A DNA stretch of 64,000 bases from an uncultured delta proteobacterium (GTDB lineage: Bacteria; Myxococcota_A; Polyangia; Polyangiales; Polyangiaceae). Positions 7,192 through 40,388 of the stretch are shown one piece after another (position 1 is the first letter of the stretch; every line of letters begins with the position of its first letter). Location: NCBI GenBank assembly GCA_963763745.1, contig CAVXQJ010000001.1, positions 130,431-194,430 on the forward strand, written 5' to 3'. The position numbers and the translations under genes are program-made. The notes beneath the pieces are model-generated. The model did no database searches, was not told the origin of the DNA, and saw nothing but the letters and a program-made list of their open reading frames with translations.

Positions 7192-11188
<3,997 letters not shown>

Positions 11189-22450: not shown

Positions 22451-23975
22451 AGCTGGCGCATCTCGAACGGCTTCTCGAGGAAAGGCAGGCCGACGCGCTC
22501 GATGAACTCGAGCGTTCCGCCGGTGGGCGTGCCGCCCGTCATGAAGACGAAGCGGTCGCGAAGGTCGGGGATGCGTTTGCACGACTTGCTCGAACAGCTC
22601 GATTCCGGTCACGTCGGGCATCATGATATCGCAAAGCACGAGGTCGAAGCGATCGTCGTGTCGAGAGAAGCTCGATCGCTTGCTCGGCGGAGCTCGCGAG
22701 CTCGATGTCGGCCTCCGACCCGATTGCGCGGCGCAGCGAGGAAAGCAGCGTCAGCTCGTCGTCGATGATGAGCAGCCTCTGGCGCATCTCGGGAGCAGTC
22801 GTACCCGAGCCCGCTTCGCGAACGGAAGAGCGAGGTGTCGTCACGGGGAAGCGCAATCGGAACGTCGAGCCTACGCGCTCCTCGCTCTCCACGCTGATCA
22901 ATCCGTTCGACGCGTGCACCACGGCGAGGACCATCGTGAGCCCGAGCCCGGTCGCTACGTCGATCGGTTTGCGCGAATAGAACGGATCGAAGATGCGCGA
23001 TTGAACGGCCGGCCCCATCCCGCAACCGTTGTCGCTCACTTCGACGACGACCATTCCGTCGCTCGCGTCGAGGCGCGTGCGCACCACGATCTCGAGCGGC
23101 GTCGTGCTGCCCTCCGCGCTCGATTGAACGGCGTTGCGCAAGAGCGCGAGGAACGCTTGCGTGAGGCGCGTCGCGCTCGCTTCGATCAACGCGACGGACT
23201 CGTATTGCTTCACGATGCGGCCACGCTCGCCGAGCTCGGCGACCGCGGTGGCGCACGCCGTGTCGAGGAGAGACCGAACGTCCACCATGCCGAGCTGCGT
23301 GTCGTCGGTGCGCGAGCACTCGCGCAGAGAGCGCACGAGCCGCGCGATTCGCTCTGCGCCTTCGCGCGCGTCGGCGATCGCGCCGAGCATGTCCGACAAG
23401 AGGTCGTGCTGCTCGTCGTCGAACGACGGCGCGCACTCGCGCAAGAACGGAGGGAGCTCTTCCGCGAGAAAATTCAGGTTGGCGAGCACGTACGCGAGCG
23501 GGTTGTTGAGCTGATGCGAGATGCCCGCGCTGAGCGCTGCGATGAGCGCGAGTTGGTCCGTGCGCCGCGCGCGCTCCGACGACGTCGCGTCGCGCACGTG
23601 AACGACGAACCCTTCGCCGTCGGCGAGCGCAACGGGCGAAGCGGTCACCGCGAGGTGCACCACGCGCCCATCCGTGCGCAGCCACTTTTGCGAGTGCGTC
23701 TCGTTCGGCGGAGTCGCGTTCAACCACGCTTCGTAATCCACCGCGTCGACGACGACGCTCACCGGTCGCGCTGCGAGCTCGGCGAGAGAGCTCGGACCCA
23801 GCATCGCGAGGAGCTGCGCGTTCGCATAGAGGAACGCATCGTTCTCTACGACGCAGACGCCGCCGTCGACGTGGTCGAGCAGCTTCCCGAGATCGTCACC
23901 GAGCGCACGCGACAAGCCGGAGCGTGGCGGCGTCGTGGATCTTCGTTCGTCGAGCGGCTTCGGACCCCGCGCCAT
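22400..23975 (-). CDS. hybrid sensor histidine kinase/response regulator (PAS-HisKA-HATPase-REC), with the REC domain frameshifted
   Basis: H-box AALSAGISHQLNNPL and the ATPase G-boxes DNGCGM and GLGLTMV, then the REC domain RLLIIDDELTLLSSLRRAIG. The REC continuation LCDIMMPDVTGIELFE is in another frame. Confidence 0.7.
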
Positions 23976-27600: not shown

Positions 27601-27881
27601 CCGAAGACGGCGGCTGGGTGATCGACGGACGATGGCCCGGCGGCAACGTGTCGATCACGTCGGCGTCGGGCAACGCGACGATCTCGGGCTCGTCGAGCAG
27701 CGGCATGCTCGCGCGTTATCACGTGACTCAGGCGTCGCTCTGCATCGAAAAGATTTCGCTCACCGGCTACGGCGAAACGACCGGCGTCGGAACGCTCGGC
27801 AAAGTCGACAAGCCGCTCGTCTCTGTCGCGATGTTCGTCGACCGCGCGCGTCAATCGCTTCGGTGCGTCGGCAACCGCTAA
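24615..27881 (+). CDS. large hypothetical lipoprotein (~1090 aa) with a poly-Asp stretch and a Gly/Tyr-rich segment
   Basis: Lipobox LIVGVFASACGG; weak BNR/Asp-box-like motifs (DGGMTWTAL); a D9 run coded by (GAC)n near 26131; GYGGYYGGYYGRYGY. Confidence 0.6.
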   Translation: MAHRTSLSLRPTGDGKATLRHVTGLRVALIVGVFASACGGARPAEDASRAALRTPASAAADPTLKPARLVPLRAADDELTFGAEPGGGKRALVAGVRVVRWAGGGVQSATDPLPAPPTETVEVPERLGGGFLFAIGPKIYRADKWLAPLQLLYVAPMNPTHVFVGLDRAYVRLTNNAYAAFDAHTGMPMDLGPWPTSPEVTRYVAADGWRAVAIADMRGAVATFDAGAKWQSLALPIQPSELRLVGESILVSGMDGSGALQSYAVQPNGQIAHLVTDEKAHVHAKPPPPPPDAEKQASKNPLVAAVLDGWPLEGGAALVARDGELLRIRIADGNVLDRAPDAFPLKPARCHSISLTPSKSPVAFGFVCGVPHGATEIYAYDPHAGKLVTLRHFDAPRAVFSPGNGTLVVEGACDEAAAPVDIKKTEQGYCLMHRDRTFEDFVVNGDVGSERVVPLTDGRTAILSPPVGDLSTARLTIFDGKRPTTIPIVFDDVATAKKPTQARKRDDDDDDDDERTTPDDDSIMTALLRSGTWLRGVEERTPGVLSAWVEHSGHYVGVEVNVNGHAKHGHYIAELGTALVSGRYGLGWSASRQGYETIDGGMTWTALALPEPLESAGPAAGAASHGCGPLGCVLAGWIRVGWTADNDKSPPDLTSQTPRSVDVHAPESLSLRCELAPGKIALASNDTSGPAQNNFGYGGYYGGYYGRYGYNRTPVSQDWSPFFTIDAPKLGADDLGFSRAIDDAYERNGNDRNSQGRFSLARVARLYAWGPKGLDWDLRGRFMVRFTSPFESSTQLHATQTMTTPEFIKEATNFAMGGGMITHAIQNIAMIPGDDASHALLVIHRASTINNEPVVLDIEAERPPAIVHRIDSQSLGDVESAVRMSGHWYMVTSEGMTSAVWELENGVAREVVRIPRVPSEGNSRSWAIRLARRADNHMLAAMLEGVPVTEGAAIPAHTWWPQLYALPIDADAGTLQDPERLGAVNGAGKSMHVCGPEDGGWVIDGRWPGGNVSITSASGNATISGSSSSGMLARYHVTQASLCIEKISLTGYGETTGVGTLGKVDKPLVSVAMFVDRARQSLRCVGNR

Positions 27882-27901
27882 AAACGTGATAACGAGGGCT
27901 C

Positions 27902-29851
27902 ATGAGTGAGCCCGAAGAGCCGTATCGCGCACCGGCCCCACCGGACGAAGAGCACACCGGCGATCCCGAGGTCGATTGGTACAGGACCGTCTACCAAGGT
28001 CACGTTCGCCAGTTCACGCTGCGCTCGTTCATCGTCGGGAGCATCATCGGCGCGGTGATGTGCTTGTCGAACCTCTACGTCGGTTTGAAAACCGGTTGGG
28101 GTCTCGGCGTCGCGATCACGGCGTGCATTCTTTCGTTCGCGGTCTACTCCACGCTCTCGCGCGTGGCGCCGAGCCTCTTCGGCAAGAACCTCACGATGCT
28201 CGAGAACAACGCGATGCAATCCACCGCGTCGAGCGCCGCGAACACGACGACGATCATCCTCTGCTCGGCGATCTCCGCGCTGCTCCTCGTCACTGGAAAA
28301 CACATCCGCATGTCGACGCTCATGGGATGGCTTTTCTTCATGGCGGTGCTCGGGACGATCATGGCGATCCCGATGAAGCGTCAGATGATCAACATCGAGA
28401 AGCTTCGTTTTCCGTCGGGCACCGCCGCCGCCGAGACGTTGAAATCGCTCTACGGCGCGGGCGGCGAAGCGGTGAAGAAGGCGCGCGCGCTCTTCTGGAC
28501 GATGGGCATCGGCGCGGTCATCGCGTGGCTCCGCGATGCGCACGGCGCGGCGGGCCATCCGATCCTCGGCATCTTCACGAAGGCGTCGATCATCCCGGCG
28601 AACATCCAGATCCCCTTCATCAAGATTCGCGGGCTGTCGCTGCTCCAGTACACGATCTCGTTCGAGGGCTCGCTCATCATGGTGGGCGCGGGAATGCTCA
28701 TGGGGCTCCGCACGACGATCAGCATGCTCGTCGGAGCGCTCATCAACTACGGCGTGATCGCGCCCATCGCGCTCGATCACGGCGTCATCAAGACGCACCT
28801 CGATGCGCACGGCGCCCCCGCGCTCGGTTACCGCGCGATCGTGTCGTTCAGCTTGTGGCCCGGCGCCGCGCTGATGGTCACGTCGGGCCTCCTCACGTTC
28901 GCGCTCCAATGGCGCACCGTGCTCCGCGCGTTTTCGGGTTTCGGAAAACTGCTCAAGAAGAGCGCCGAGCATCACGATGCAGCATCGAGCGATCCGCTCG
29001 AGAAGACGCGCGCCGATCTCGACAAGATCGAAGTGCCCTCGTCGTGGTTCGCGGGCGGCACCGCGGCGGCGACCGTGGGCCTCGTGCTCATCGGGTACTT
29101 CGCGTTTCAGATTCGCCCGTGGATGGGCGTAGTCGCGGTGATTCTCTCGTTCATGCTCGCGATCGTCGCGTGCCGCGCAACGGGCGAGACGGACATCACG
29201 CCCGTCGGCGCGATGGGCAAGATCACGCAGCTCACGTACGGCGTGCTCGCGCCGTCGAACATCACGACGAACCTCATGACGGCGAGCCTCACGGCAGGCA
29301 CCGCCGGCGCATCCGCGGACCTGCTGAACGATCTCAAGAGCGGATATCTGCTCGGCGCGAACCCGCGCCAACAGTTTCTCGCGCAGCTCTCGGGCACGCT
29401 CATCGGCACGGCCGTGTCGGTGCCGGTGTTCTACTTGCTCGTGCCGACGCCCGACGCGCTCGGCACGGATCGCTTCCCCGCGCCGAGCGCGCAAGTGTGG
29501 AAGGGCGTCGCCGAATTGCTCGCGAATGGAGTCGAGTCGCTCCACCCGTGGGCGCGCTGGGGCATCGTCGTCGGCGGCGCGATCGGCATCGTGCTCCCGC
29601 TCCTCGAGCTCGCGTTTCCGAAACATCGAAAGTGGATGCCGAGCGCGACGGGCCTTGGGCTCGCGCTCGTCATCCCGTGCTGGAACTCGGTGTCGATGTT
29701 TCTCGGCGCGCTCCTCGCGTACGTCTGGACGAAGTACAAGAGCGAGCACGGCGAGCGCTACATCACGTCGGTCGCCTCGGGCATCATCGCGGGCGAGAGC
29801 CTTCTCGGCGTCGTCGTCGCGCTCCTCAGCGCCGGTGGCTATCTCGAATGA
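27902..29851 (+). CDS. OPT-family oligopeptide transporter
   Basis: About 16 TM helices and typical OPT conserved blocks (NLYVGLKTGWGLG, RFPSGTAAAETLKSL, PVGAMGKITQLTYG). Confidence 0.85.
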   Translation: MSEPEEPYRAPAPPDEEHTGDPEVDWYRTVYQGHVRQFTLRSFIVGSIIGAVMCLSNLYVGLKTGWGLGVAITACILSFAVYSTLSRVAPSLFGKNLTMLENNAMQSTASSAANTTTIILCSAISALLLVTGKHIRMSTLMGWLFFMAVLGTIMAIPMKRQMINIEKLRFPSGTAAAETLKSLYGAGGEAVKKARALFWTMGIGAVIAWLRDAHGAAGHPILGIFTKASIIPANIQIPFIKIRGLSLLQYTISFEGSLIMVGAGMLMGLRTTISMLVGALINYGVIAPIALDHGVIKTHLDAHGAPALGYRAIVSFSLWPGAALMVTSGLLTFALQWRTVLRAFSGFGKLLKKSAEHHDAASSDPLEKTRADLDKIEVPSSWFAGGTAAATVGLVLIGYFAFQIRPWMGVVAVILSFMLAIVACRATGETDITPVGAMGKITQLTYGVLAPSNITTNLMTASLTAGTAGASADLLNDLKSGYLLGANPRQQFLAQLSGTLIGTAVSVPVFYLLVPTPDALGTDRFPAPSAQVWKGVAELLANGVESLHPWARWGIVVGGAIGIVLPLLELAFPKHRKWMPSATGLGLALVIPCWNSVSMFLGALLAYVWTKYKSEHGERYITSVASGIIAGESLLGVVVALLSAGGYLE

Positions 29852-29957
29852 AGAATTAGACAGGGAGTCAAGGCAGAGAGTGGGAGAAGAGATGGGAGAT
29901 ATTTTTCTTTAAGAAAAAAATCTCCCTCTTCACTCCATTTCTCTGACCTTCTCCCTG
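29852..29957. repeat. AT-rich imperfect palindrome (~45-bp arms, perfect central hairpin gggagatatttttctttaagaaaaaaatctccc); a candidate bidirectional terminator or REP/MITE-like element
   Basis: The left arm agaattagacagggagtcaaggcagagagtgggagaag is the reverse complement, with a few indels, of the right arm cttctccctgtcaattct. It fills the whole gap between two convergent stop codons; local GC is about 40% against about 70% for the window. Confidence 0.6.
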
Positions 29958-31466
29958 TCAATTCTTCTCTTGGTCGTAAGCCCACTTGGGACGCGGGTGC
30001 TCCGGTGGGCGGAGCTCGCAGCCCGCGTTCTTCTTCAGCGGGCCATCGGGAACGAAGAGGCCGTCGTTCGTTCCGGGTTTGCCCCACACTTCGGTGGGTC
30101 CCTTGCATCCTTGCGCGATCCACGTCGCGATGATCGAGAGCTCTTCGTCCGTCATCGACGGAATGCCCATCGGCATCCCGAGCGGCGCCTTCGGAACGCG
30201 CGGATAATTCGGGCGATCGTAGTCCTCGAACGCGGGCACGTGATCGCGTTGCTCCTCGACGCGTCGCTGCACCATCGCAAGAACGATCGGCGGCATCGCC
30301 TCACCCGGTCGCGCGATCAAGACCGAATAACGTTTTCCATCCGTGCCCACCGCGCCGTTCACGAGCGCTTCGTACGTGCGCATCGAGAGGCCGATGCCGT
30401 GGTAACCGAACCCGCCTTTGTTTCCGGGGCCGGTGTCTTTCTCGTAGTCGTTCATGTGGCAGTGGACGCACACCTTCCCGATCGTGCGCGCCTTCATCTC
30501 TTCCCACTTCACTTCGCGCTCGAGAATTTTCGGCGGCGTGACCGTGTATGCGTCGGGCGCGCTATGGAGATCGGGATCGCCGAAGAAGAGAAAATCGCGA
30601 ATCGCCGCGGCTTCGTCGTGCGTGAGGCTGCTCGGCGGCATCGTCGTGTCGGGTTTGATCTTCGGAGCGTTTTGGATCCACTCGACGATGACGTCCGCGC
30701 GTGTCCGCTCTTTCGCGAAGCGGAGATTCGGCGCGAGGCCGTTCGTTCCGCGAGCGCCTTCGAGCGCGGCGCGCGGAATGCCCGTGTCGATGTTTCCGAA
30801 CGTGTGACACGCGGGACAACCCTTGTTCAAAAAGAGCTGTTTGCCTTTGTCGATGCGTGACTGCTCCGGACGCTTTCCGAGCTCCGGCGCTTTGTAATCG
30901 GGCGCGTATGGATCGGGCGCGAACGCGATCGCGGCGAAGTAGCGCGCGATCGCCTTGATGTCGTCGTCGCTCAGGTTGTGGCGGATCATGCTCTCTTCGA
31001 GCGTCGGCCGCTGATCGTAGGGCTGCGCGAGGAAGCTCGCGATGTAGTCCGCGCGCACGCGCTTTCCCACGTTCGTGAGGCTCGGCACTTTGATCAAGTG
31101 CACGATGTTCTTCTGGTAGCGCGCGAGGATGTCCGCGCCGTAGCGCGTCTTCAGCTCTTCGAATTGTTTCTCGCCGGGTTTGAGCCCGTTCAAGAACTCG
31201 TGACAGCTCGTGCAGTAGTTCGGGCGAACGGGCGCGGCGAGATCGTCGATGTCGTGACAGCGGCGGCACTCGTTTTTCTCGAGCACCGCCTTGCCCGCTG
31301 CGATCGCGTCGGTGCGCGTTTTCTCGTCCCACTTCGTCTTCGGTGGTTCGAACGTCGTCACCGCGACGGACGCGGCAGCGTCGATCGTCGAGGGAGGCGG
31401 TGGTGTTTTTCCGCATGCGGCACAGAGCGCAGCGATCGCGATCGACCCAGCGAAGAACCTATGCAC
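29958..31466 (-). CDS. tetraheme c-type cytochrome lipoprotein
   Basis: Lipobox AIAALCAACG; four CxxCH motifs (CRRCH, CTSCH, CPACH, CVHCH). Confidence 0.8.
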   Translation of the reverse strand: MHRFFAGSIAIAALCAACGKTPPPPSTIDAAASVAVTTFEPPKTKWDEKTRTDAIAAGKAVLEKNECRRCHDIDDLAAPVRPNYCTSCHEFLNGLKPGEKQFEELKTRYGADILARYQKNIVHLIKVPSLTNVGKRVRADYIASFLAQPYDQRPTLEESMIRHNLSDDDIKAIARYFAAIAFAPDPYAPDYKAPELGKRPEQSRIDKGKQLFLNKGCPACHTFGNIDTGIPRAALEGARGTNGLAPNLRFAKERTRADVIVEWIQNAPKIKPDTTMPPSSLTHDEAAAIRDFLFFGDPDLHSAPDAYTVTPPKILEREVKWEEMKARTIGKVCVHCHMNDYEKDTGPGNKGGFGYHGIGLSMRTYEALVNGAVGTDGKRYSVLIARPGEAMPPIVLAMVQRRVEEQRDHVPAFEDYDRPNYPRVPKAPLGMPMGIPSMTDEELSIIATWIAQGCKGPTEVWGKPGTNDGLFVPDGPLKKNAGCELRPPEHPRPKWAYDQEKN

Positions 31467-31471
31467 GCGCC

Positions 31472-33431
31472 CTACTTTACACTCTTCGACGAGCCCTCCG
31501 TTCCGTTCTTGCGAACCACGTTCTTCACGTGCGAGTCCGTGCCGATCGGAAGCGCGCCGAGGAGTCGTTCGACGACGTCGGTCACGCTCTCACCGCCGAG
31601 GATGGCGAGCGGCGAGACGTTCTTCGAGAGCTCCGCTGCGAGCTGTTGATGACCGAGCGTCTTCAGCGTCGCGACGAGCTCGGGCGACATCGCGGCCATT
31701 TGATCTCGGAACGCGGCGACGCGCGCTTCCATCATCTTCTGCTCGAGCGCGTTCTCGCGCTCCTTCGCCGCCATGCGCGCCGCGTCCGCGACGCCGCTCA
31801 CCGCGGCTGCCGCTTCGGCAGTCGCGAGATCCACGAGTCGCTTCTTCTCGACGCGCGCTTGCTCGACGACCATCGTCGATGCTTGCTCTTCGCAAATCGT
31901 CCGGCGCACTTGCTCCTTCAGCTTCTCCGTCTCGAGACGGAGGAGCTCTTGCCGGCGCGTCACGTCCGCGACGATCGCGTTCTTCTGCGCGCCGCCGAGG
32001 AGGACCTGCACTTCGGGATCGAGGATGCGCACGTCGAGGACCTCGACGTCGTAGATCCACATTCCGTTTTCTTCGAAGTGACGGCCGGGACGCGGTTCGC
32101 CTTCGCGCTTCTCGCCGAGGATCGCGGTGCGGAGGATCTCCGTGCCGTTTTGGTAGAACGCCTCGATCGAGCACGCGCGCGCCGCGGCGCGCAGAAGCGA
32201 GCCCGCGTGGTCGCACAAGAGACCGACGTAGTCCTTCACGTTGAACCAACGCGCCGTCTCGGGACCGACGAACGACACGCGATACGACACGACGACCTCG
32301 ACCTCGTTGTGATCGCCCGTCTTCAATCGGAGGACGTCCGAGACTTTGTTCCCGTCGGTTTGGAGGAAGCACGTGCGCAGCGTGCGCTCCGACGATTTGG
32401 GTTTGCCCGTCGAGAGCTCGAGCACCTCGAGATCTTCGTCGAAGTCGAGGACGCGCGTTTGCGGACCGCGCACGACCTCGCGCGAGCTCCGCGCGGTGAC
32501 GAGCACGGCGAAGCTCGACGGGATGTACACGGCGAGCGAGTAGCCGTCGTTCGCGACGCCGATAGAGATCGATGCGCGCTTGATCGAGATCGCGCGCGAT
32601 GATTTGCACGCGCGTCGGGTCGGGCAAGTAGTTCACCGGACCGACGATCGTCGTGATGCGCCCCGTCGCGATGTCGCGCGCGTAAACGCCTTGTCGCTCG
32701 CCGATCGGAATCGCCGAGATCTCTGCGACGACTTCGACGTTCGGCGTTGGAAAGAAGAATCCTTCGCCCTCCGCGATGAACATGTCTTGTCCAGCTTCGT
32801 ATTCGCCCTCCGGAATTACGCCGCCCGCGGGTTGAACGAACGATTTTGCGACGCGCAGATGAAGACCCGCGCCTTTGCGCAAGCGACGCGCCTTGTGGAC
32901 GTATCCGCTCTGCCCGGCGAGGACCTCGATGCCGGTGATGGGAACATAGAAGCTCGTGTCTTCGCCGCGCACGATCATCTCCGTTCCGATCGGCTCCTCG
33001 TGGCCTTCGTCGTCGTAGACGCGCACGACGAGGTACTCGTCTTCGCGGAGCGCGTGACCGTCGACGACGCGCGCGCGCTGTCCGGGCCAGAGCGGAAACG
33101 ACGCGGGCCCGGGCACGACGACTTTGCGACCGGTGCGAAGCTCGACCGCGCTGTTGTTCCCTTTCGTCGGTTTGACGTTCGGATCCTTCGGCGGATTTTC
33201 GAGCACGATGTACTGCGACGACGTCGCGCTCGTGAACGTCGCGACGGCGCTGCCTTCATCGGCGCGCACGGGAACGAAGCGGCCGTGCTGGTAGTCGACG
33301 AGGCGTTCGGTGTTCGACAGGCTGATCTTCGTCGGACCCACGTAGAGGACGATGTCGCCCTTCGTGAGATCCTGGACGTAGGCGTATTCGTTCGAGGCCA
33401 CGAGGATGTCGCGTTCGCGTGTGTCGGTCAT
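31472..33431 (-). CDS. major vault protein (MVP) homolog, with a single frameshift near 32500-32560
   Basis: The N-terminal MVP repeats (FPLWPGQ vs eukaryotic FPLYPGE; IPIGERQGVYARDIATGRITTIVGPVNY vs [28 protein letters not shown]) are in ORF 31590..33467. The shoulder and cap-helix regions (VEVVVSYRVSF, NVKDYVGLLCDHAGSLL, NGMWIYDVEVLDVRILDPEVQVLLGGAQKNAIV) are in ORF 31472..32530. Confidence 0.8.
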
Positions 33432-33526
33432 GCACGGCGAGATTGCAGCGTGCGTGCCGTGCTCCAAATGCGCGGCGACCCGTGTTTTCCCGTCGATTCG
33501 CCGCTCTCGAATGGAGCGCGACGCGA

Positions 33527-34675
33527 TCAGATCCGGCGCGCGACGTTTGGGAGCTTCTTCGCGCTCTCGTCATCGAGCGCGCAAACGCCCACTTCCTTGC
33601 GCGTCTGAAAGACGATGAACGCCTCGCTCGCCCACCACGCTTCGCCCGGCTTCGACGCGGACGGCACGCGCTTCGCGCCGATCACTTTGGCGACGCGCGC
33701 GCCGCTGCCCTTCGGCATCTTCCGAAAGCGCCTGCGCGAGATCTTCTCCTCGAAGTACGACGCGAGCGTGAGGCGCGCGACGATCGAGTCACCGTTTTTC
33801 GCGAACACGCCCGGCATCATGCCTTCGATCTCGTCTTCGCCGAACACGCGGCCCTTCGCGTCCATGTAACAGTTGCCGCGCGAGTCGATCGCGATCGGAA
33901 CGAGATCGTCTTCGCGCTTCTTCGGTTTCTGCGATTTGAAAAACGCGAACGCGCCGAACATCGCGTAGGTTCCTTCGTCGATCCAATCGTCGTCGCCGGA
34001 TTCGGGCACGATCAAGCCGCCGTAGCGCGCTTCGAAATCGAGCACGGCGGGGTGCGCTTTGTATCCGCGCTTCGCGAGGAGCGCGACGAGCTCGGCGCGC
34101 GTCGTCGTCTTCTTTGGATCGCGCTCGGCCTTCTTGCGCCGGAAGAGCGCCGCGATGGGCGCATCGACGACGCTCATCACGCTCGCGAGCGCGGCCGCGG
34201 CGCGCGGATCGACGCGACGCTTCGGCTCTGGAATCGGCGTGCTGTCGATGTCGTCGCGTTTGGCGACGCGTTTCTTGGCGTCTGCGAATCGCGCCTGCAC
34301 CTTGCGGTGCCGAGCGAGCGAGTCCTTGCCGGGCATCCCGTACGAAGTGTGGGTGAGGATGAGGTCGACGAGATCCTTGCCGCCGGTCGCTGCAGCGAGC
34401 AGCTTGCCGATCGCGTCGGACAGCCAACCCGCGGCGCGCTGGAGCGGGTCGTCGAAGTGATTGTCGTGTTTGTCCGAGATGCGAAACATTTTGTTCTGCG
34501 CGAGCACCAAGTCTTTCTTCTTGGCTTCGCCGCGCAGCGACGCTTCGACGAGACCGAGAGCACGGTGCCACTCGGGCGTGACGGGGCCTCCTGCTTCGGC
34601 GAGCTCGGCGACGGCAACGCTCACGACGATGTGGAGCGCTGCGATCGTTTGCGGAGTCGTTTGTGCGCGCTTCAT
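33527..34675 (-). CDS. SMI1/KNR4 (SUKH-superfamily) domain protein
   Basis: The C-terminal region YGGLIVPESGDDDWIDEGTYAMFGAFAFF...LVPIAIDSRGNCYMDAKGRVFGED fits the SUKH pattern; the start is MKRAQTT. Confidence 0.5.
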   Translation of the reverse strand: MKRAQTTPQTIAALHIVVSVAVAELAEAGGPVTPEWHRALGLVEASLRGEAKKKDLVLAQNKMFRISDKHDNHFDDPLQRAAGWLSDAIGKLLAAATGGKDLVDLILTHTSYGMPGKDSLARHRKVQARFADAKKRVAKRDDIDSTPIPEPKRRVDPRAAAALASVMSVVDAPIAALFRRKKAERDPKKTTTRAELVALLAKRGYKAHPAVLDFEARYGGLIVPESGDDDWIDEGTYAMFGAFAFFKSQKPKKREDDLVPIAIDSRGNCYMDAKGRVFGEDEIEGMMPGVFAKNGDSIVARLTLASYFEEKISRRRFRKMPKGSGARVAKVIGAKRVPSASKPGEAWWASEAFIVFQTRKEVGVCALDDESAKKLPNVARRI

Positions 34676-35412
34676 CGCTTGCGAAGGTCGATCGTCACCA
34701 TCCCGCGCACCACCTCGCTCGACGCGACGTCGAACCCCGCGTCGCGCGCGCGCTTCTCGAGCCAGTCGGGCGCGATGCGCAGCTTTCTGTAGCTCGACAC
34801 GCGCATGTCCCATCCGGCGTCGCGCCGCTGGTGAATCACGTCGTACACGCGAACGTGATCGCCGTCGTACTCGAGGAAGCACGAGAACACGGTGTGCTCG
34901 TCGGCGCGCACGGGGATGAAGCGCTCCTCGGCGCGGAGCTCGCGCGTGAAATCGCGCAGCGCGATGACGAAGCGTCCGCCGGGCACGAGCACGCGATTCA
35001 CTTCACGCAGCAAGCGTTGAACGTCGCCGAAGCTCGCGAGGTGCGTGAGCGTGTCGCCCATGCACACGCACGCGTCGAACGACTGCGGCTTCATCTCCGT
35101 GATGCATTGGAGGATGTCGCTGCGAACGATTTCGATCTGCAGGTCCCCGGCGTTTTGCACGAGCTCGCCGAGCAGCTTCTGGCTCAAGTCGACCGCGGTG
35201 ACCGCGAATCCGAGCTCCGCGAGCGGGATCGACTGAAAGCCGGAGCCCGCACCGATGTCGAGCGCGCGCGCGTTTTCTTTTCCGCCCTCTTTTCCGCGCA
35301 GCCCGATCGACTCGAAGAACGCGCGGTTCTCTCTCGCGCGCTCGGGCAGCCCGCCGAAGAGCCACGAGTAGTGCTCTGCGAGATGGAGGTCGTAGTGCTC
35401 GGCGATGTTCAT
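34672..35412 (-). CDS. class I SAM-dependent methyltransferase
   Basis: LDIGAGSGFQSIPLAELGFAVTAVDLS is motif I, and there is a motif post I/II. The start overlaps the upstream stop by 4 bp. Confidence 0.75.
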   Translation of the reverse strand: MNIAEHYDLHLAEHYSWLFGGLPERARENRAFFESIGLRGKEGGKENARALDIGAGSGFQSIPLAELGFAVTAVDLSQKLLGELVQNAGDLQIEIVRSDILQCITEMKPQSFDACVCMGDTLTHLASFGDVQRLLREVNRVLVPGGRFVIALRDFTRELRAEERFIPVRADEHTVFSCFLEYDGDHVRVYDVIHQRRDAGWDMRVSSYRKLRIAPDWLEKRARDAGFDVASSEVVRGMVTIDLRKR

Positions 35413-36503
35413 TTGAGCGTGAGCGGTGGCTTCGCGCGCGCCCACACGGTCATCTCCGCGGGGTACACGCAGCTCGTGAGCGCGGAGTCTTTGCAGCCGG
35501 CCTCGCCGCGAATCGCGTTGCAGCTCGACGCGACCGAGGACACCGCTTGCGCTTCCGTCATGCCCCACATGCGCGCGCACGCGATGTTGACGAACGTTTG
35601 ATCGTCGTCGACGTGTTTCTCCTCGTCGCGCGCGACGCTGAAGCCGGGCTTCTCGCAGTGTTGCTTTGCGAACGCGATGGAGCGCTCGTCCGTCATCGAG
35701 AAGGTTCCATTCGGAAGCGAGTGAACGAGCATCGGCGGGCCGACGACTTGCGCGGGCGCGCCGTTGCAACGTGCGCCGATGCGCGCGCGGTACGGACCGT
35801 ACGAGACGAAGTCGGGGCGGCCGTCACGATCGACGTCTTCGACGCGGAAAATCGGGAGATCCTTCGCGGGCGCATAGAGCTGCGCGGACGCGTTCTTGAA
35901 CTCGACGATGTACGCCATCGGATCGCGCGGGCCGTCCTTGGTTTGATCGTGACCGATGACGATGAGCTCTTCCTCGCCGTCGCCGTCGAAGTCGAAATCC
36001 ATTTGCGTGTCGAACGCGACGCGATCCATCTCGTGGCTCTGGAACGCGCGATCCTTGGTGCGCACGGTTCCTTGGAGCACGACGCTCGTCTTCTGACCTT
36101 TCGCGTCCGCGTGGAACGCGACGAGCTGCGCCGTGACGCCGTGGAGCTCCTCTTTCAAATCGCGAAGACCGATGCCCCACGCGCCGCCCGATTTCGTCTT
36201 CGTGCACTTCGAGAACGCACCGAGCACGTCGTCGTTCATCGATTGAACGTGACCGAGCGGATCCTTCGATTCGGTGATCGCTTTGAGCTTCGCGTTTTGA
36301 TCTTTGCGCTCGTCGTCGAGCGCGCCGCATGCGACGTCTTTTTCCGGCGTGGGCGGTGTCACCGTTTGCGCCGTCGTTGCGGATGCCGTCGGCGCGCTTG
36401 CCGTCGCGGTCGCCGTCGCCGATGGAACCGGCGGAGTGTTCACGGGCGTGCTCTCGCCACAAGCGACGAAGCCGACAAATCCGATGATTAGAGCGTGCTT
36501 CAT
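35409..36503 (-). CDS. lipoprotein with FG-GAP-like DxDGDG repeats
   Basis: Lipobox LIIGFVGFVACG; a T/A/P-rich linker; FDFDGDGEEELIVIG and DVDRDGRPDFVSYG repeats. Its start overlaps the methyltransferase stop (ATGA). Confidence 0.55.
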   Translation of the reverse strand: MKHALIIGFVGFVACGESTPVNTPPVPSATATATASAPTASATTAQTVTPPTPEKDVACGALDDERKDQNAKLKAITESKDPLGHVQSMNDDVLGAFSKCTKTKSGGAWGIGLRDLKEELHGVTAQLVAFHADAKGQKTSVVLQGTVRTKDRAFQSHEMDRVAFDTQMDFDFDGDGEEELIVIGHDQTKDGPRDPMAYIVEFKNASAQLYAPAKDLPIFRVEDVDRDGRPDFVSYGPYRARIGARCNGAPAQVVGPPMLVHSLPNGTFSMTDERSIAFAKQHCEKPGFSVARDEEKHVDDDQTFVNIACARMWGMTEAQAVSSVASSCNAIRGEAGCKDSALTSCVYPAEMTVWARAKPPLTLK

Positions 36504-36539
36504 GGCGGAACGTTTTCTCACGTGCTAGATGGGCGCGCG

Positions 36540-37472
36540 ATGAAAAAGGGGATTCTTGCGCTTTTTCTGACCGTCACGCCGGTCACGCTCGCGTTCGCGT
36601 GCGGGGACAATGGCAACGGAACCGAAACGGACAGCGGCGCTCTCGACGTGACGCAGAAACAGGACGTGATGACGCAGCCCGTCGACGCGGCGAAAGACGC
36701 GCTCGATGCGGCGCCGACCGACGCTCCCGGTTTCCCCTGGCCCGACTGCACGTCGCAACCGTCGACCGTCCCGACGAAGACCATCGTCGATTTGTGGAAC
36801 GACGATCCGACGACGCCCGAGCAAGTCTGGTTGAACGGCGTGTACGTCACGGCGATCTCCGCCGGTGGATGCGCGGCGGGCAAAGCGTGCGAGTTCATCG
36901 TCCAGCAAGATCTCACGTACTCGTCGCTCGCCGTTGGCGCGCACCACGCGATTCGCGAGTGGGTCACGTCGACCACCGCGAAGTATTTCACGTCGCTGCA
37001 AGTGGGCGACCAAGTGAACATGATGGCGTGGGCCCTCCGCGAGAACGAAGGCGGACAGAACGAGCTGATCACGCACGTCGACACGATCGAGCCGGGCTGC
37101 GCGCTCAAGATCGGAACGGGAACGCCAGCGCCGATCACCGGCGTCACGCTCCAAGACATCGGATCGATCGCCGCATACGAGACGACGTACGGTCCGCTCT
37201 TGATCGAAATCGCGAACGTCACGGGGACGCCGAAGCAACCGGATCAAACCTTCGGTCTCGGCGATACGTTCTACGACGGCGGCGCGAGCGACGCGCAGAT
37301 CGTGAGCCTCAGCCCGTATTACATGGCGGGCAGCGTGTTCGTCGGATTCGACGCGGGCGTGAAGACGAAGTTCGCGTCGGTATCGGGCGTGTACAACGAG
37401 TACTTCAACCCCGACGCATCCGCGGTGAAGTACTTGGAGATCGGCACGCGCACGATGGGCGACGTGCAGTAG
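36540..37472 (+). CDS. hypothetical lipoprotein
   Basis: MKKGILALFLTVTPVTLAFACG lipobox; transcribed divergently from the MVP operon. Confidence 0.55.
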   Translation: MKKGILALFLTVTPVTLAFACGDNGNGTETDSGALDVTQKQDVMTQPVDAAKDALDAAPTDAPGFPWPDCTSQPSTVPTKTIVDLWNDDPTTPEQVWLNGVYVTAISAGGCAAGKACEFIVQQDLTYSSLAVGAHHAIREWVTSTTAKYFTSLQVGDQVNMMAWALRENEGGQNELITHVDTIEPGCALKIGTGTPAPITGVTLQDIGSIAAYETTYGPLLIEIANVTGTPKQPDQTFGLGDTFYDGGASDAQIVSLSPYYMAGSVFVGFDAGVKTKFASVSGVYNEYFNPDASAVKYLEIGTRTMGDVQ

Positions 37473-37506
37473 GCTGGTTACCTGCTCCGCGGCTTCGCCG
37501 CGATGG

Positions 37507-37917
37507 TCATTTGAGCGCTTCCGGAACGCGCGAGAGCGCGCCGTGGACTGCGCCGCGCATCGCGCTCTCGGGGACGTGACCGCTGCCGCCTTGTGCGCGC
37601 GCGCGACCTTCGAGCACCGCGAAGAGAACGCCGCCGTCGCGCGAGCGCAGCGTCGCCGAGATCACGCACGTCGTCTCCGCGTGCTCGGTCTCCATCTTCA
37701 CGAGCGACACGCTGAGGATGGCGTCTTTGTGCGCGCCGCGTAGATCGAGCTCGCGCATCTCCGATTGGAGCGCATCACGCAGCGCGCTCGTCATGTGCGT
37801 CGCGCCCGACGGGACGGCGACCTCGCCGAGCGAGAGGTGGCGGCTCTCGGCATCCGCGGCCTTCGCGGGAACCAGCACGCCCAAACCGAGAACCACTCCG
37901 AGAATCGCGAGGCGCAT
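37507..37917 (-). CDS. small secreted hypothetical protein
   Basis: Signal peptide MRLAILGVVLGLGVLVPAKA followed by a roughly 115-aa domain. Confidence 0.4.
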   Translation of the reverse strand: MRLAILGVVLGLGVLVPAKAADAESRHLSLGEVAVPSGATHMTSALRDALQSEMRELDLRGAHKDAILSVSLVKMETEHAETTCVISATLRSRDGGVLFAVLEGRARAQGGSGHVPESAMRGAVHGALSRVPEALK

Positions 37918-37967
37918 GAAATCCTCCTTCACGTCCGCTATCGGATGCGACGAGGTCGGGCCAACTT

Positions 37968-40388
37968 TTGGAGTACCATCCTCACGCGGTCATGCGCGGT
38001 CTCGCCTTCGCGCCCTTCCTCTTTCTTTGTGCGTTCTGCGAGTCGAACCAAGTTCCGCCCGCGCCGCAGACGTTCGATCTCGGCGACCACACCACCGCGA
38101 CGTTTTCGAACGGGTCGCTCTCCGTCACGCGCGACGGCGCGCCGCTTCTCTCGTCGCCGAACGGAACGCCGCTCATGACGCGCGCGCACGACACCGACTC
38201 GCCCGACGAGTGGCACGATCCCGCGAAGACGACGTACACGTTCGACACGATCGATCCGCGCACCATCTCGGTCGAGAGCCCATCGCCCGGCGTGCTCCAC
38301 GTGACGACGCCCGATGACGGCGCAGACACGGTGCTCTTGCGCGTCTCGCTCGCGAGCGACGACGGATTTTACACCGGGCTCGGCGAGCAGTTCGCGCACG
38401 TGAGCGCCCGCTCTGCGATCACGCCGATGCAGATGCTCGTCAACGCGCAGTTCGAGTCCGCGACGAACGACGCGCACGTTCCCGTTCCGCTGCTCGTCTC
38501 GTCGAAGGGCTACGGCGTGTTCTTCGAGAGCCACGAAGCGGGCGCGTTCGACGTCGCCGCGACGGATCCGAACGTGGTGACGGCGACGTTCGAAGGAAAA
38601 GTCTCGAGCGTGTGGTTCTTCTTCGCGCGCGACCCGCTCGAAGTGATTGCACAATACACGCAATACGTGGGCCTCCCGCGCGTCCTCCCGCGCTGGGCGC
38701 TCGGCCCGATGTACTGGCGCAACGAATTTTCCGGGACCGCACAAGTTCTCGACGACGCGGCGATGTTCCGCACGCTCCACATCCCGACCACGACGATGTG
38801 GATCGACAACCCGTGGCAGACCGCATGGAACACCTTCGTTCCCGATCCGGCGAAGTACGCCGATCCGTCGTCGCTCATCGGCGAGCTCGGCGCGCTCGGT
38901 TACCGGATGATGTTCTGGTCGGAGCCGTATCTCGAAAAACCGGGGACGGGTCCCGCGGACGAAGCGCAGGATCTCTACACGCAAGCCGCGAACACCGATG
39001 GCGTGCTCGTGCGACTGCACGATGGCGCCATCTTCGCGGCGCTCGGCTCCGACACGTCGAAGCAATTCGGCATGATCGATTTCACGACGAGCGCGGGGCG
39101 CGATTTTTGGGCGAACCTCGCGTCGCGCGCGGTGTCGCTCGGCGCGGCGGGTTTCAAGCTCGATTACGGCGAGGATGTCATCGCACAGATCTTCAACGCG
39201 CGCATCGGCATCATCTACGGAGACGGCGAGACGGATCGCACCGCGCGAAATTATCCGCGCCACTACCACGACGCGTATCACCAAGCGCTCGATGCGGTTC
39301 GCGACGACGGGATCTTGCTCGTGCGCGCGTCGAGCTACGGCGGCGCGCAAAACGCGGACATCATCTGGCCCGGCGATCTCGATCCGGATTTTGCGAAGCG
39401 CGGTGATCCCACGGGCACGGGCACGTTCTTCGTCGGTGGATTGCCGGCGGCGGTCGTTGCCGCGGAGACGCTCTCGGTGAGCGGGTTTCCGCAGTTCGGA
39501 TCCGACACGGGCGGCTTTCGTCACGGCGCGCCGACGAAGGAAGCGCTCCTTCGCTGGGCAGAGCACACCGCGCTCTCGATGGTGATGCAGCTCGGCGGCG
39601 GAGGGGACACTCACGCTCCGTGGACGTACGACGACGAAACGGTGACGCTCTATCGACAGCTCGCAGCGCTGCACACGGACCTCGAGCCGTATCTCTCGTC
39701 GCTCGCGCGCGACGCGGAGACGAAAGGCCTGCCGACGATTCGGCCCATTCCGCTCGCGTTTCCGACGGATGCAGCGTCGTTCGATTTCGCGGACGAGGAG
39801 TACATGCTCGGCGCGGATCTGCTCGTGCCGCTCGTGATCACGCAGGGCGCGACGAATCACACCGTGCATTTTCCGCCAGGCGCGTGGGCGAATTTCGCGA
39901 CGGGCGAAGTGACGAAAGGCCCGATCGAAGAGACCGTCGACGCACCGCTCGGCGCGCCCATTTTCTACGCGCGCGTCGGCGCGATCGTTCCCATGCTCGC
40001 GTCCGACGTGGACTCGCTCGTCGACGCGACGGTGCCGACCGTCGTCAGCGCGTCGCAGCGTCCGACGTTCGAAGCGCGTGGATGGCCGAGCGGAAAAGCG
40101 AGCGCGCAATTCGACGACGGATCGCAAATCGCGATCGACGACACGGCGCAAGGCGTCGGCGTGACGTTCACGCCGGGCTCGTTCGGCACGGCGATCGTGT
40201 GCACGCTCGACGTGCGATCGCGCACGGGAAAAACTTCTCCGCTCACGCACGTCGTCATCGGTCAGGCCGAGGTCGCGGCGGCCGCGAGCGAAGCGGACGT
40301 TCGCGCGGCCACGGGGAGCGCGTTTTTTCTTTCGGGTGATTCGATCGTCCTTCGTTTGGCGGGCGGCGCGACCGCGTGGATCGAGTGA
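37968..40388 (+). CDS. glycoside hydrolase family 31 (alpha-glucosidase/alpha-xylosidase-like)
   Basis: GFKLDYGED nucleophile block (compare YicI KTDFGE) and the WPGDLDPDF...GLPAAV...SGFPQFGSDTGGF block typical of GH31. Confidence 0.75.
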   Translation: MEYHPHAVMRGLAFAPFLFLCAFCESNQVPPAPQTFDLGDHTTATFSNGSLSVTRDGAPLLSSPNGTPLMTRAHDTDSPDEWHDPAKTTYTFDTIDPRTISVESPSPGVLHVTTPDDGADTVLLRVSLASDDGFYTGLGEQFAHVSARSAITPMQMLVNAQFESATNDAHVPVPLLVSSKGYGVFFESHEAGAFDVAATDPNVVTATFEGKVSSVWFFFARDPLEVIAQYTQYVGLPRVLPRWALGPMYWRNEFSGTAQVLDDAAMFRTLHIPTTTMWIDNPWQTAWNTFVPDPAKYADPSSLIGELGALGYRMMFWSEPYLEKPGTGPADEAQDLYTQAANTDGVLVRLHDGAIFAALGSDTSKQFGMIDFTTSAGRDFWANLASRAVSLGAAGFKLDYGEDVIAQIFNARIGIIYGDGETDRTARNYPRHYHDAYHQALDAVRDDGILLVRASSYGGAQNADIIWPGDLDPDFAKRGDPTGTGTFFVGGLPAAVVAAETLSVSGFPQFGSDTGGFRHGAPTKEALLRWAEHTALSMVMQLGGGGDTHAPWTYDDETVTLYRQLAALHTDLEPYLSSLARDAETKGLPTIRPIPLAFPTDAASFDFADEEYMLGADLLVPLVITQGATNHTVHFPPGAWANFATGEVTKGPIEETVDAPLGAPIFYARVGAIVPMLASDVDSLVDATVPTVVSASQRPTFEARGWPSGKASAQFDDGSQIAIDDTAQGVGVTFTPGSFGTAIVCTLDVRSRTGKTSPLTHVVIGQAEVAAAASEADVRAATGSAFFLSGDSIVLRLAGGATAWIE

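Follow-up and report, generated by a model that had tools for sequence, protein, structure and literature searches.

In the 64,000-nt stretch of DNA analysed here (the window), five genes follow one another on the minus strand. The first in the direction of reading encodes a probable lipoprotein of 364 amino acids (35409..36503) with a lipoprotein-type N-terminus and one weak FG-GAP-like repeat (Pfam FG-GAP_3, E=3.7e-4, 21.5 bits vs a cut-off of 26.9). Its stop codon overlaps, as ATGA (35409-35412), the start of a class I SAM-dependent methyltransferase gene (34672..35412; Pfam Methyltransf_11, E=1.3e-16; sub-threshold matches only in NCBIfam), which begins at the ATG at 35412 or possibly at a GTG at 35445, as in the gene call of the related locus L001. 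The methyltransferase stop codon in turn overlaps, again as ATGA (34672-34675), the ATG of a SUKH-3-like gene (33527..34675, 382 amino acids; Pfam SUKH-3, E=4.7e-4, 20.8 bits vs a cut-off of 23). The SUKH and FG-GAP names, which come from an earlier, sequence-only reading of this DNA, thus have Pfam matches behind them, both of which lie under the curated cut-offs.

A 95-nt gap containing a promoter-like element separates the SUKH-3-like gene from a gene related to major vault protein (MVP; 31472..33431). The stop codon of the MVP-like gene, at 31472, lies 5 nt ahead of the GTG start codon (31466) of a tetraheme c-type cytochrome, a probable lipoprotein of 502 amino acids (29958..31466; Pfam Cytochrom_C, E=2.6e-15); the window and L001 both have this tight spacing of 4-5 nt. 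The earlier description of this protein is borne out by its four CXXCH motifs (residues 67, 85, 217 and 333) and by a hydrophobic segment of lipoprotein type at its N-terminus, which ends in Cys; the gene spacings given there are likewise correct.

Where the cytochrome c and OPT-transporter genes converge, RNA folding shows a long near-perfect hairpin of about 112 nt (29855..29966; dG -65.2 kcal/mol, z=-8.8). It overlaps the final codons of the cytochrome gene, has no second copy in the window and gives weak matches to miRNA-precursor (hairpin) models only. L001, with 3 nt between the two genes, lacks this hairpin, which is likely a bidirectional terminator or a small palindromic insertion.

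The MVP-like gene encodes a shortened homologue of major vault protein

The MVP-like gene is not one open reading frame, as three-frame translation shows. Its N-terminal part (32562..33431, minus strand) starts with the ATG at 33431 and encodes residues 1-290, containing beta-repeat domains 1-5; its C-terminal part (31472..32560, minus strand) encodes residues 291-652 (32560..31475) and ends in a TAG stop. DNA alignment with three related loci (L001, L002 and L062) places a single extra base, relative to all homologues, at 32561 on the minus strand, where the window reads TCTATCGGCGTC and the relatives TCTAC-GGCGTC; the inserted base is ambiguous among its neighbours. Across this junction, every aligned homologue has the peptide DLYG[VIM]. 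After repair of the frameshift, the joined protein has 652 amino acids, and tblastn with this protein gave 100% across 33431..32562.

The encoded protein is a true homologue of eukaryotic MVP by sequence, profile and predicted fold, as the sequence-only reading had proposed, and MVP repeats can indeed be recognised in it, as can the shoulder and the cap helix. In Pfam, the joined protein matched MVP_shoulder (PF11978) at E=1.1e-26 over residues 361-471 (93.6 bits vs a cut-off of 25), as did 16/16 relatives, and Vault_3 at E=3.7e-7 (30.6-31.2 bits vs 28.8); the window's protein stayed below cut-off for Vault_4, a model to which 15/16 relatives have matches (best E=6e-6), and classic Vault (PF01505) gave no match. 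A profile search against the PDB returned MVP chains alone (E=6e-45), aligning query residues 149-618 with MVP residues 294-800, and hhalign against human MVP residues 275-409 gave E=8.7e-10. The similarity of IPIGERQGVYARDIATGRI to human MVP, quoted earlier, is present in both the HMMER and hhalign alignments. For the other quoted pair, FPLWPGQ/FPLYPGE, significance is not demonstrable: the N-terminal alignment to human MVP is collinear but reaches only E=0.025, and the likeness of repeat 1 is not significant either. Foldseek searches with an AlphaFold2 (AF2) model of the joined protein (pLDDT 80.8) found full-length matches to human, rat and rabbit vault chains (E=7e-32 to 1e-25) and matches to crystal structures of murine MVP R1-R7 (E=3e-12), with rings of the SPFH family (HflK/C, flotillin, erlin, prohibitin, stomatin) ranked after the vault chains at about 1e-6. 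The GC content of the region (0.62-0.66) is host-like, as stated before.

The model contains an array of about six five-strand beta-repeat units (residues 16-353), where MVP has nine, with repeat 6 in the C-terminal part of the gene. This is followed by an alpha/beta shoulder domain (residues 361-471; about 32018..32350, minus strand) and a predicted single cap helix of ~120 residues (472-591; about 31658..32017, minus strand), into whose MVP counterpart the PDB profile alignment extends, to residue ~800. Beyond that residue the conserved bacterial C-terminus does not align with MVP and is modelled with pLDDT <55; within it, the homologue alignment shows a helical region (residues ~583-630) with invariant P583, L585, G612, G613 and P628. 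Repeat 1 is also modelled with low confidence (pLDDT 47-69); the N-terminal part was aligned to sets of 15 and 117 full-length homologues, and residues 12-43 are near-invariant among 118 homologues. The N-terminus is charged, and the protein has neither a signal peptide nor a hydrophobic segment (maximum Kyte-Doolittle 1.17), features that predict a cytoplasmic protein. In the rat vault, 78 copies of MVP form a closed shell of two halves. The Foldseek comparison shows the predicted monomer fold to be compatible with a shell of this kind.

A sigma-54-type element precedes the MVP gene

Within the gap upstream of the MVP-like gene lies a sigma-54-type promoter element, CGGCACGCACGCTGCA (GG-N10-GC; 33444..33459, minus strand), identified by alignment, an enrichment scan and base frequencies. 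The C of its -12 'GC' is 14 nt ahead of the A of the MVP ATG, a spacing that implies a leaderless or near-leaderless transcript. The element is kept in an alignment of five relatives whose upstream genes differ, and 45/62 loci have a comparable site in the 150 nt ahead of the MVP start, compared with 121/14752 control windows (0.8%); with a stricter score, the figures are 24/62 loci and 0.11% of controls. Base frequencies of the sites agree with TGGCAC-N5-TTGCW: among 52 sites from homologous loci, all of which have GG and GC because the scan selected for them, the independently scored positions show C4 in 50, A5 in 47, C6 in 46 and W16 in 48. By position the sites form two classes, which correspond to whether a GGAG ribosome-binding site is absent or present. 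In the same scan, the element was absent at the loci of Planctomycetota and Acidobacteriota MVP homologues. A motif search for GAFTGA-type activators found none in the window and only 2-3 near MVP in 71 loci; at L071, an FHA-Sigma54_activat gene lies 2.8 kb downstream.

The element upstream of MVP is, as a match to the consensus, a new finding of this analysis. Because a conserved element of this type stands just upstream, the MVP gene probably starts a transcription unit of its own, comprising here MVP and the cytochrome c, although upstream genes may alternatively be read through into MVP.

Neighbouring genes are not conserved with MVP

Clustering of all flanking open reading frames at about 62 loci showed no recurrent MVP partner family. 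The FG-GAP-like gene adjoins the methyltransferase gene in L001-L006, L062 and L071; however, this pair is divided from MVP by an opposite-strand gene in L004, L062 and L071 and lies 4-5 kb away on the other strand in L005 and L006. The SUKH-like gene, whose insertion point coincides with the stop codon of the methyltransferase gene, occurs in none of the 70 related loci, and its product has 4 homologues among 5.8 billion proteins, three of them non-identical and one with PF14433; it is a lineage-specific insertion outside the MVP unit. The cytochrome is found directly downstream of MVP in L001, L002/L003, L004 and L062 only, an adjacency that extends over five genomes with at least 77% MVP identity and gaps of 4-80 nt, and is missing beside MVP in L071 (78% MVP identity) and at 70% identity and lower. 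As a whole, the five-gene order is held only at 77% MVP identity or above, where it is interrupted or incomplete in L004, L062 and L071, and is absent at 70% or below; nor does any neighbour family recur throughout the phylum.

The sequence-only reading had described the five genes as tightly coupled, which the overlaps and short spacings support in part; with the 95-nt gap and its promoter-like element between SUKH and MVP, the coupling is not uniform. As to the eukaryotic vault partners, which it had described as missing, an Rfam search of 27000..39000 found no vault RNA, not even at E<=1, and neither TEP1 nor vPARP is among the neighbours. The cytochrome and FG-GAP-like proteins carry lipoprotein signal peptides and the MVP-like protein does not, which assigns them to different compartments.

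The locus belongs to a common bacterial family

The locus is one more member of the described bacterial MVP-like family, in a Polyangiaceae-type myxobacterium. This family is common in myxobacteria and not extremely rare in bacteria, as had been supposed: searches gave 3,576 database matches, all single open reading frames of about 650-720 amino acids, as well as 645 clusters at 50% identity with E<=1e-30 (1,437 with E<=1e-3) and 62 loci in species-representative genomes. Bacterial members from Corallococcus (H8MNI3), Plesiocystis (A6FXM1/A6FXE2), Enhygromyxa (A0A0C2D5V5), Saprospira and Microscilla were described in 2013 (Daly, PMC3762200) and 2019 (Sokolskyi, 10.1101/872010) by in silico work, which predicted folding and docking like those of MVP; neither report discusses gene context or promoter. 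The window's copy shares with them the family, the phylum Myxococcota, the architecture with a band-7-like shoulder and the uncharacterised status, but belongs to a Polyangiales/Haliangiales-type subgroup of ~650-720 amino acids, whereas most other clusters have 800-930, and is frameshifted.

Compared with eukaryotic MVP (PDB 4V60, 9BW5, 9R86), the bacterial protein keeps the collinear order of beta-repeats, SPFH-like shoulder and long cap helix, and motif-level identity around repeats 7/8 (IPL.E.EG.Y..D..TG). It differs in having about 21% overall identity, about six repeats instead of nine, no counterpart of the PF01505-matched region, a shorter modelled cap helix (~120 amino acids) and a C-terminus of bacterial type that does not align with the cap ring, in lacking vault RNA, TEP1 and vPARP in its surroundings, and in its predicted sigma-54-dependent transcription. 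Asgard archaea, although they belong to another domain of life, likewise encode shortened MVP homologues, which combine five repeats with a shoulder and a cap helix; closed cups have been proposed as their assembled form, and they have entered the discussion as evidence that vaults arose in prokaryotes (Nat Microbiol 2026, PMC12962969). The same study places bacterial MVP homologues in 'only a few Bacteria', whereas the matches found here number in thousands. The SPFH/Band-7 ring formers (HflK/C, flotillin, prohibitin, stomatin, erlin) share the shoulder fold followed by a long dome-bundling helix, but possess an N-terminal membrane anchor and lack a beta-repeat array. Membership of the anchored SPFH/Band 7 group was considered and rejected: the SPFH-like fold is present, but there is no hydrophobic segment, and Pfam Band_7 is matched by only 1/16 members of the MVP-like family.

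Discussion

Taken together, these data are best explained, with a probability of roughly three in four, by a shortened cytoplasmic MVP that is expressed from its own sigma-54 promoter and carries a frameshift introduced by assembly, next to a separate upstream unit of the FG-GAP-like lipoprotein gene (the first gene), the methyltransferase gene and the strain-only SUKH-like insertion, whose adjacency to MVP would reflect recent synteny rather than a functional vault module. The MVP gene would be read from a sigma-54-dependent promoter directly upstream, with an enhancer-binding activator required and, probably in this genome, a leaderless mRNA as the product; in the shallow clade, the transcript would probably run through the tetraheme cytochrome c lipoprotein gene, co-transcribed with MVP, and end at the long hairpin. 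On the model of MVP and of SPFH rings, the protein most likely homo-oligomerises: monomers would line up laterally to build a large dome or closed cage, and their helices would form a bundle at its cap.

Two alternatives concern the MVP-like gene itself. The frameshift is present in the sequence as given, and no intact identical allele was found among the public data searched, as would be expected if a real 1-nt insertion had made the gene a true pseudogene in this strain. We regard this as distinctly unlikely, since neither half contains stops or other lesions, both retain the invariant residues, with 84-87% identity to the closest orthologue, and the downstream cytochrome and upstream promoter element are intact. 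Moreover, a kinase gene within 10 kb (22411..23975) contains two further frameshifts no more than 200 nt apart, and clustered frameshifts are typical of indel-prone long-read assemblies; the shift at 32561 is therefore most likely an assembly error. The second alternative holds that the gene product builds, instead of a closed vault, a scaffold of the SPFH type: an open ring or dome that uses its extremely conserved N-terminal repeat to dock against the cytoplasmic membrane from the inside, or against some other structure. The shoulder matches SPFH rings (about E=1e-6), annotators frequently label the family HflC/stomatin-like, six repeats would make a much shorter barrel than nine, and the near-invariance of residues 12-43 suggests a conserved binding surface. 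However, the protein lacks a membrane anchor or hydrophobic segment, and the vault shell is by far its best structural match, over the full length. In eukaryotic vaults (PDB 4V60), the N-terminal repeat makes the half-to-half waist contact, and such a role would also account for the strong conservation of this repeat. On balance, we consider the scaffold possible, though rather unlikely.

The remaining alternatives concern the neighbours of the preferred shortened MVP. That all five genes form one co-transcribed vault module, with new partners in place of TEP1, vPARP and vault RNA, was the proposal of the sequence-only reading, and is suggested by their common strand, the two ATGA overlaps, the 5-nt MVP-cytochrome spacing and the recurrence of the order FG-GAP - methyltransferase - MVP - cytochrome in L001 and L002/L003. 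Comparative context has already largely refuted this proposal, which we find highly improbable: SUKH is unique to the window, opposite-strand genes or 4-5 kb separate the methyltransferase from MVP elsewhere, the cytochrome is lost already at 78% MVP identity, no partner recurs in about 62 loci, a conserved sigma-54 element lies in the gap before MVP, and two of the proteins are exported lipoproteins while MVP is predicted to be cytoplasmic. A narrower version, in which MVP and the tetraheme cytochrome are a sigma-54-controlled functional pair in this Polyangiaceae clade, draws on their adjacency in five genomes, and the 4-5 nt spacing in the window and L001 leaves room for such a clade-specific link. 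One possible role would be a redox, metalloid or envelope-stress response to which the nearby methyltransferase contributes, given that, weakly and below threshold, the cytochrome resembles the selenite/tellurite-reduction cytochrome ExtS (25.6 bits vs a cut-off of 100) and the methyltransferase resembles TehB (Pfam TehB, E=0.0045). These similarities are generic (a heme-binding motif and a class I methyltransferase fold) and far under curated cut-offs, the pairing is lost in L071 and all more distant genomes, and the two proteins occupy different compartments, which together make a functional pair very unlikely.

Beyond this locus, we propose tentatively, as a speculative extension, that Myxococcota make genuine vaults: closed cages of six-repeat MVP that are switched on in starving, developing or stressed cells through sigma-54 and an enhancer-binding protein, in many cases by way of leaderless mRNAs. 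If so, the literature would greatly underestimate how widespread the vault family is in bacteria, the cage gene of this Polyangiaceae clade would be co-expressed with a periplasmic tetraheme cytochrome, and myxobacteria would offer a tractable system for studying the function and prokaryotic origin of vaults.

Results

The MVP-like gene (31472..33431, minus strand) encodes, once its frameshift is repaired, a 652-aa protein that matches the Pfam MVP_shoulder model at E=1e-26 and exceeds the cut-off of Vault_3, with Vault_4 matched by 15 of 16 relatives. A search of the PDB with a profile of 16 homologs returned major vault protein (MVP) chains only (E=6e-45), profile positions 149-618 aligning to MVP residues 294-800, and hhalign paired bacterial residues 127-270 with human MVP 275-409 at E=8.7e-10, the human sequence having been confirmed as identical to the PDB chain. 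An AlphaFold2 model built from 118 homologs (mean pLDDT 80.8; a 16-sequence input gave an unusable 59.7) has about six beta units of five strands each over residues 16-353, followed by an alpha/beta domain (361-469), a single helix (472-591) and short C-terminal helices. Foldseek matched this model over its full length to human, rat and rabbit vault chains (E=7e-32 to 1e-25), then to murine R1-R7 crystal structures (3e-12) and next to SPFH ring formers (~1e-6). The MVP homolog with repeats, shoulder and cap helix proposed in the sequence-only reading is thus borne out by Pfam, by the PDB profile and by the predicted MVP-type fold. Compared with eukaryotic MVP, however, the bacterial protein has six repeats rather than nine, and none of them matches the classic Pfam 'Vault' model (PF01505-type repeats). 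Neither a hydrophobic segment nor a signal peptide was found in the protein, which argues for a cytoplasmic location, and we take it to be a cytoplasmic, shortened MVP.

Towards the N-terminus, phmmer of the first 171 aa against the PDB gave matches at chance level only, and aligning the family profile to human MVP 1-134 with hhalign gave a collinear but non-significant result, as did comparing repeat 1 with human repeat 1. For repeats 1-2, the evidence of homology to MVP is thus the match in predicted fold. Over 118 homologs with 52-87% overall identity, residues 12-43 of repeat 1 (~33303..33398; EYAYVQDLTKGDIVLYVGPTKISLSNTER) are almost invariant; no other part of the protein is as well conserved in the alignment of these homologs, yet this stretch is modelled with low confidence, and it may form a key interface. 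Scans of an MVP orthologue against NCBIfam and PADLOC returned no family and no defence-system match, respectively. Eukaryotic contamination or recent transfer from a eukaryote was ruled out by 22 kb of synteny with bacterial contigs, by thousands of bacterial homologs and by a GC content that is host-like, as had been noted from the sequence.

Five successive minus-strand genes span 29958-36503: a probable lipoprotein with one weak FG-GAP-like repeat (35409..36503), a class I SAM methyltransferase (34672..35412), a SUKH-3-like protein (33527..34675), the MVP-like gene and a c-type cytochrome (29958..31466) with four CXXCH motifs, as expected of the tetraheme protein first described. The spacings also agree with that description, the FG-GAP/methyltransferase and methyltransferase/SUKH junctions being ATGA overlaps and the MVP stop lying 5 nt from the cytochrome GTG; 95 nt separate the SUKH stop from the MVP start. 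The SUKH and FG-GAP labels were recovered as Pfam matches (SUKH-3 and FG-GAP_3), but both fall below the curated cut-offs. In the cytochrome and the FG-GAP-like protein an N-terminal hydrophobic segment ends in Cys, so both are probably lipoproteins, the cytochrome a periplasmic one.

We compared these neighbours with 64, later 71, related loci. The order FG-GAP, methyltransferase, MVP, cytochrome is kept in L001 and in L002/L003. A beta-propeller lipoprotein gene on the opposite strand separates the methyltransferase from MVP in L004 and L062, and in L071 (MVP identity 78%) a different opposite-strand gene does so and the cytochrome is absent. At 63-64% MVP identity the FG-GAP and methyltransferase genes lie 4-5 kb away on the other strand, and at 70% or below MVP has unrelated neighbours and looks monocistronic. 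When all ORFs up to 4 kb from MVP were clustered over about 62 loci, no family was present in more than 11 of them; the top cluster consists of generic Ser/Thr kinases, the remainder of shallow synteny blocks. The SUKH-like gene was found in none of the related loci. The proposed five-gene vault operon is therefore not upheld, since its gene set is not kept across related loci and no partner recurs, and myxobacterial MVP-like genes are stand-alone across the phylum. As first reported, no vault RNA was detected in the region.

The SUKH-3-like gene is a 1,149-bp insert placed precisely at the methyltransferase stop codon (ATGA ... TGA), with TGA flanking both ends and host-like GC. Its protein has only three non-identical homologs among 5.8 billion proteins, and a look-up of the identical protein gave a single 1.6-kb contig. 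An independent contig, a short one from run ERR11594405, has the same methyltransferase-SUKH junction. What lies between methyltransferase and MVP varies among relatives: either nothing or opposite-strand genes.

The ~50 nt upstream of the MVP ATG are conserved in five relatives with differing upstream genes, and this stretch holds a sigma-54-type GG-N10-GC element, CGGCACGCACGCTGCA (33444..33459, minus strand). Scanning up to 150 nt upstream of the MVP start, and requiring GG, GC and a match at five or more of the seven remaining consensus positions, we found a site in 45 of 62 non-redundant loci; control windows drawn from these loci gave 121 of 14,752. Raising the requirement to 6 of 7 left 24 of 62 loci and 0.11% of controls. 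The base frequencies of the sites reproduce TGGCAC-N5-TTGCW. By consensus, then, the MVP gene appears to have its own sigma-54-type promoter. The sites form two classes by position: in one, a GGAG ribosome-binding site follows a GC at about -36 to -40; in the other, which includes the window, the GC lies at -14 from the ATG and there is no Shine-Dalgarno sequence. The latter geometry would place the start at or next to the ATG, implying a leaderless MVP mRNA in the window.

The element is absent from loci labelled Planctomycetota and Acidobacteriota, two of which show sigma-70-like hexamers by eye. No dedicated sigma-54 activator lies near MVP in the window, and a GAFTGA motif occurs near the gene in 2-3 of 71 loci. 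L071 carries a gene for an FHA-Sigma54_activat-HTH_8 enhancer-binding protein (9803..11110, plus strand), 2.8 kb downstream of its MVP-like gene. Over 29700..36800, a consensus scan for sigma-70 promoters found none, and one for intrinsic terminators gave terminator-like matches, none at gene ends. The cytochrome c and OPT transporter genes converge on a near-perfect, purine- and AT-rich hairpin of ~112 nt (29855..29966; dG -65 kcal/mol, z=-8.8). The window contains a single copy of it; in L001 the hairpin is missing and 3 nt separate the two flanking genes. Matches to plant miRNA precursor models were weak and spurious. The hairpin may act as a terminator in both directions, or it may be a small inserted palindrome. 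With a sigma-54-type element upstream and this long hairpin after the cytochrome gene, the transcription unit most likely runs from the promoter through MVP and cytochrome c to the hairpin.

A word-indexed search with the MVP-like protein gave 3,576 significant matches. The best 120 of these are all single ORFs, nearly all of ~650-720 aa and mostly from Myxococcota, and several carry the source names 'major vault protein' or 'HflC/stomatin-like'. When representatives at 50% identity were searched exhaustively, 1,437 clusters reached E<=1e-3 and 645 reached E<=1e-30; the majority are 800-930 aa long, and JGI calls some of them MVP. Alignments of the 800-930 aa clusters to the myxobacterial profile are confined to its C-terminal half (repeat 6, shoulder, helix and C-terminus), which points to at least two length classes of bacterial MVP-like proteins with a common bacterial-type C-terminal region. 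Two exact peptide motifs alone located 62 loci in species-representative genomes, taking in Polyangiales, Labilithrix, Haliangium, Kofleriaceae, Archangium and Myxococcaceae as well as bins labelled Planctomycetota and Acidobacteriota. Bins labelled Planctomycetota, Gemmataceae, Blastocatellia/Acidobacteriota and 'Clostridia' contain homologs of 49-60% identity (L008, L012-L015, L029, L052, L053), some with low-GC upstream regions and sigma-70-like promoters. Either Myxococcota passed these genes on by horizontal transfer or the contigs were placed in the wrong bins.

In silico descriptions of myxobacterial homologs, from Corallococcus, Plesiocystis and Enhygromyxa, by Daly et al. 2013 (PMC3762200) and Sokolskyi 2019 (10.1101/872010) preceded reports of phage and Asgard homologs (Asgard: PMC12962969); the 2026 paper on the Asgard proteins places MVP homologs in 'only a few Bacteria' (PMC12962969). 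These counts contradict the earlier view that MVP homologs are extremely rare in bacteria. That they are uncharacterised holds in so far as our literature search found no experimental work on any bacterial MVP, but not for in silico description, which dates from 2013. The gene studied here is a frameshifted new member of a known, uncharacterised family.

Residues 1-290 of the protein lie in the frame of 33431..32562 and residues 291-652 in another, 32560..31475. Removal of one base yields the junction peptide DLYGV, kept in all full-length homologs; in the DNA alignment the window reads TCTATCGGCGTC against TCTAC-GGCGTC in relatives. Both halves are otherwise undamaged, at 84-87% identity to the nearest orthologue. 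Programmed frameshifting was ruled out, the homologs being single ORFs with the junction peptide conserved in frame. A hybrid histidine kinase/response regulator gene (22411..23975, minus strand) is likewise split over three frames (23975..22662, 22657..22568 and 22569..22411), that is, by two frameshifts within ~200 nt; its L001 orthologue is intact (520 aa). The MVP-like and kinase genes together hold at least three frameshifts in 22 kb, which makes an indel-prone assembly the likeliest cause. That the MVP-like gene is a true pseudogene in the window is unlikely, and is entertained because protein and DNA searches turned up no intact copy of this allele from an independent source. No match came from a protein search with a junction-spanning segment of 140 aa, a length at which the word index is probably limiting, and exact DNA matching against JGI metagenomes found neither allele at the frameshift.

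Discussion

A metalloid or redox role might be read from similarities of two genes beside MVP. The cytochrome (29958..31466) scores 25.6 bits against ExtS, a selenite/tellurite-reduction cytochrome lipoprotein (cut-off 100), and the methyltransferase (34672..35445) weakly resembles tellurite-resistance TehB and a daptide RiPP methyltransferase; however, these similarities are all sub-threshold and probably generic motif matches, so this role is given low weight.

Beyond the MVP-type fold, the cytoplasmic location, the stand-alone gene and its conserved sigma-54-type element, which the analysis establishes, we propose by analogy with MVP and SPFH proteins that the protein would self-assemble by lateral contacts, giving a large ring, a dome or a closed cage whose cap is a bundle of the long helices. 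The two halves of eukaryotic vaults meet in a waist contact, and residues 12-43 of repeat 1 might provide such a half-to-half contact or a docking surface. Expression would be conditional, through an enhancer-binding protein.

The homology in the original interpretation has stood, whereas the operon and the rarity have not. By itself this gene adds little, as both Pfam and the literature have included bacterial homologs, myxobacterial ones among them, since 2013, and some already receive the name 'major vault protein' from annotation pipelines. Two points are worth keeping, the predicted sigma-54 control of the MVP gene and an unexpectedly large family, far larger than the papers say: its sequences run to thousands and its 50% clusters to hundreds, mostly in Myxococcota, with others in Planctomycetota and Acidobacteriota. 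That the myxobacterial MVP genes stand alone with a conserved sigma-54-type promoter element speaks against seeking cargo or partners among their neighbours; the promoter itself would offer an experimental handle on when bacteria make the MVP-like protein.
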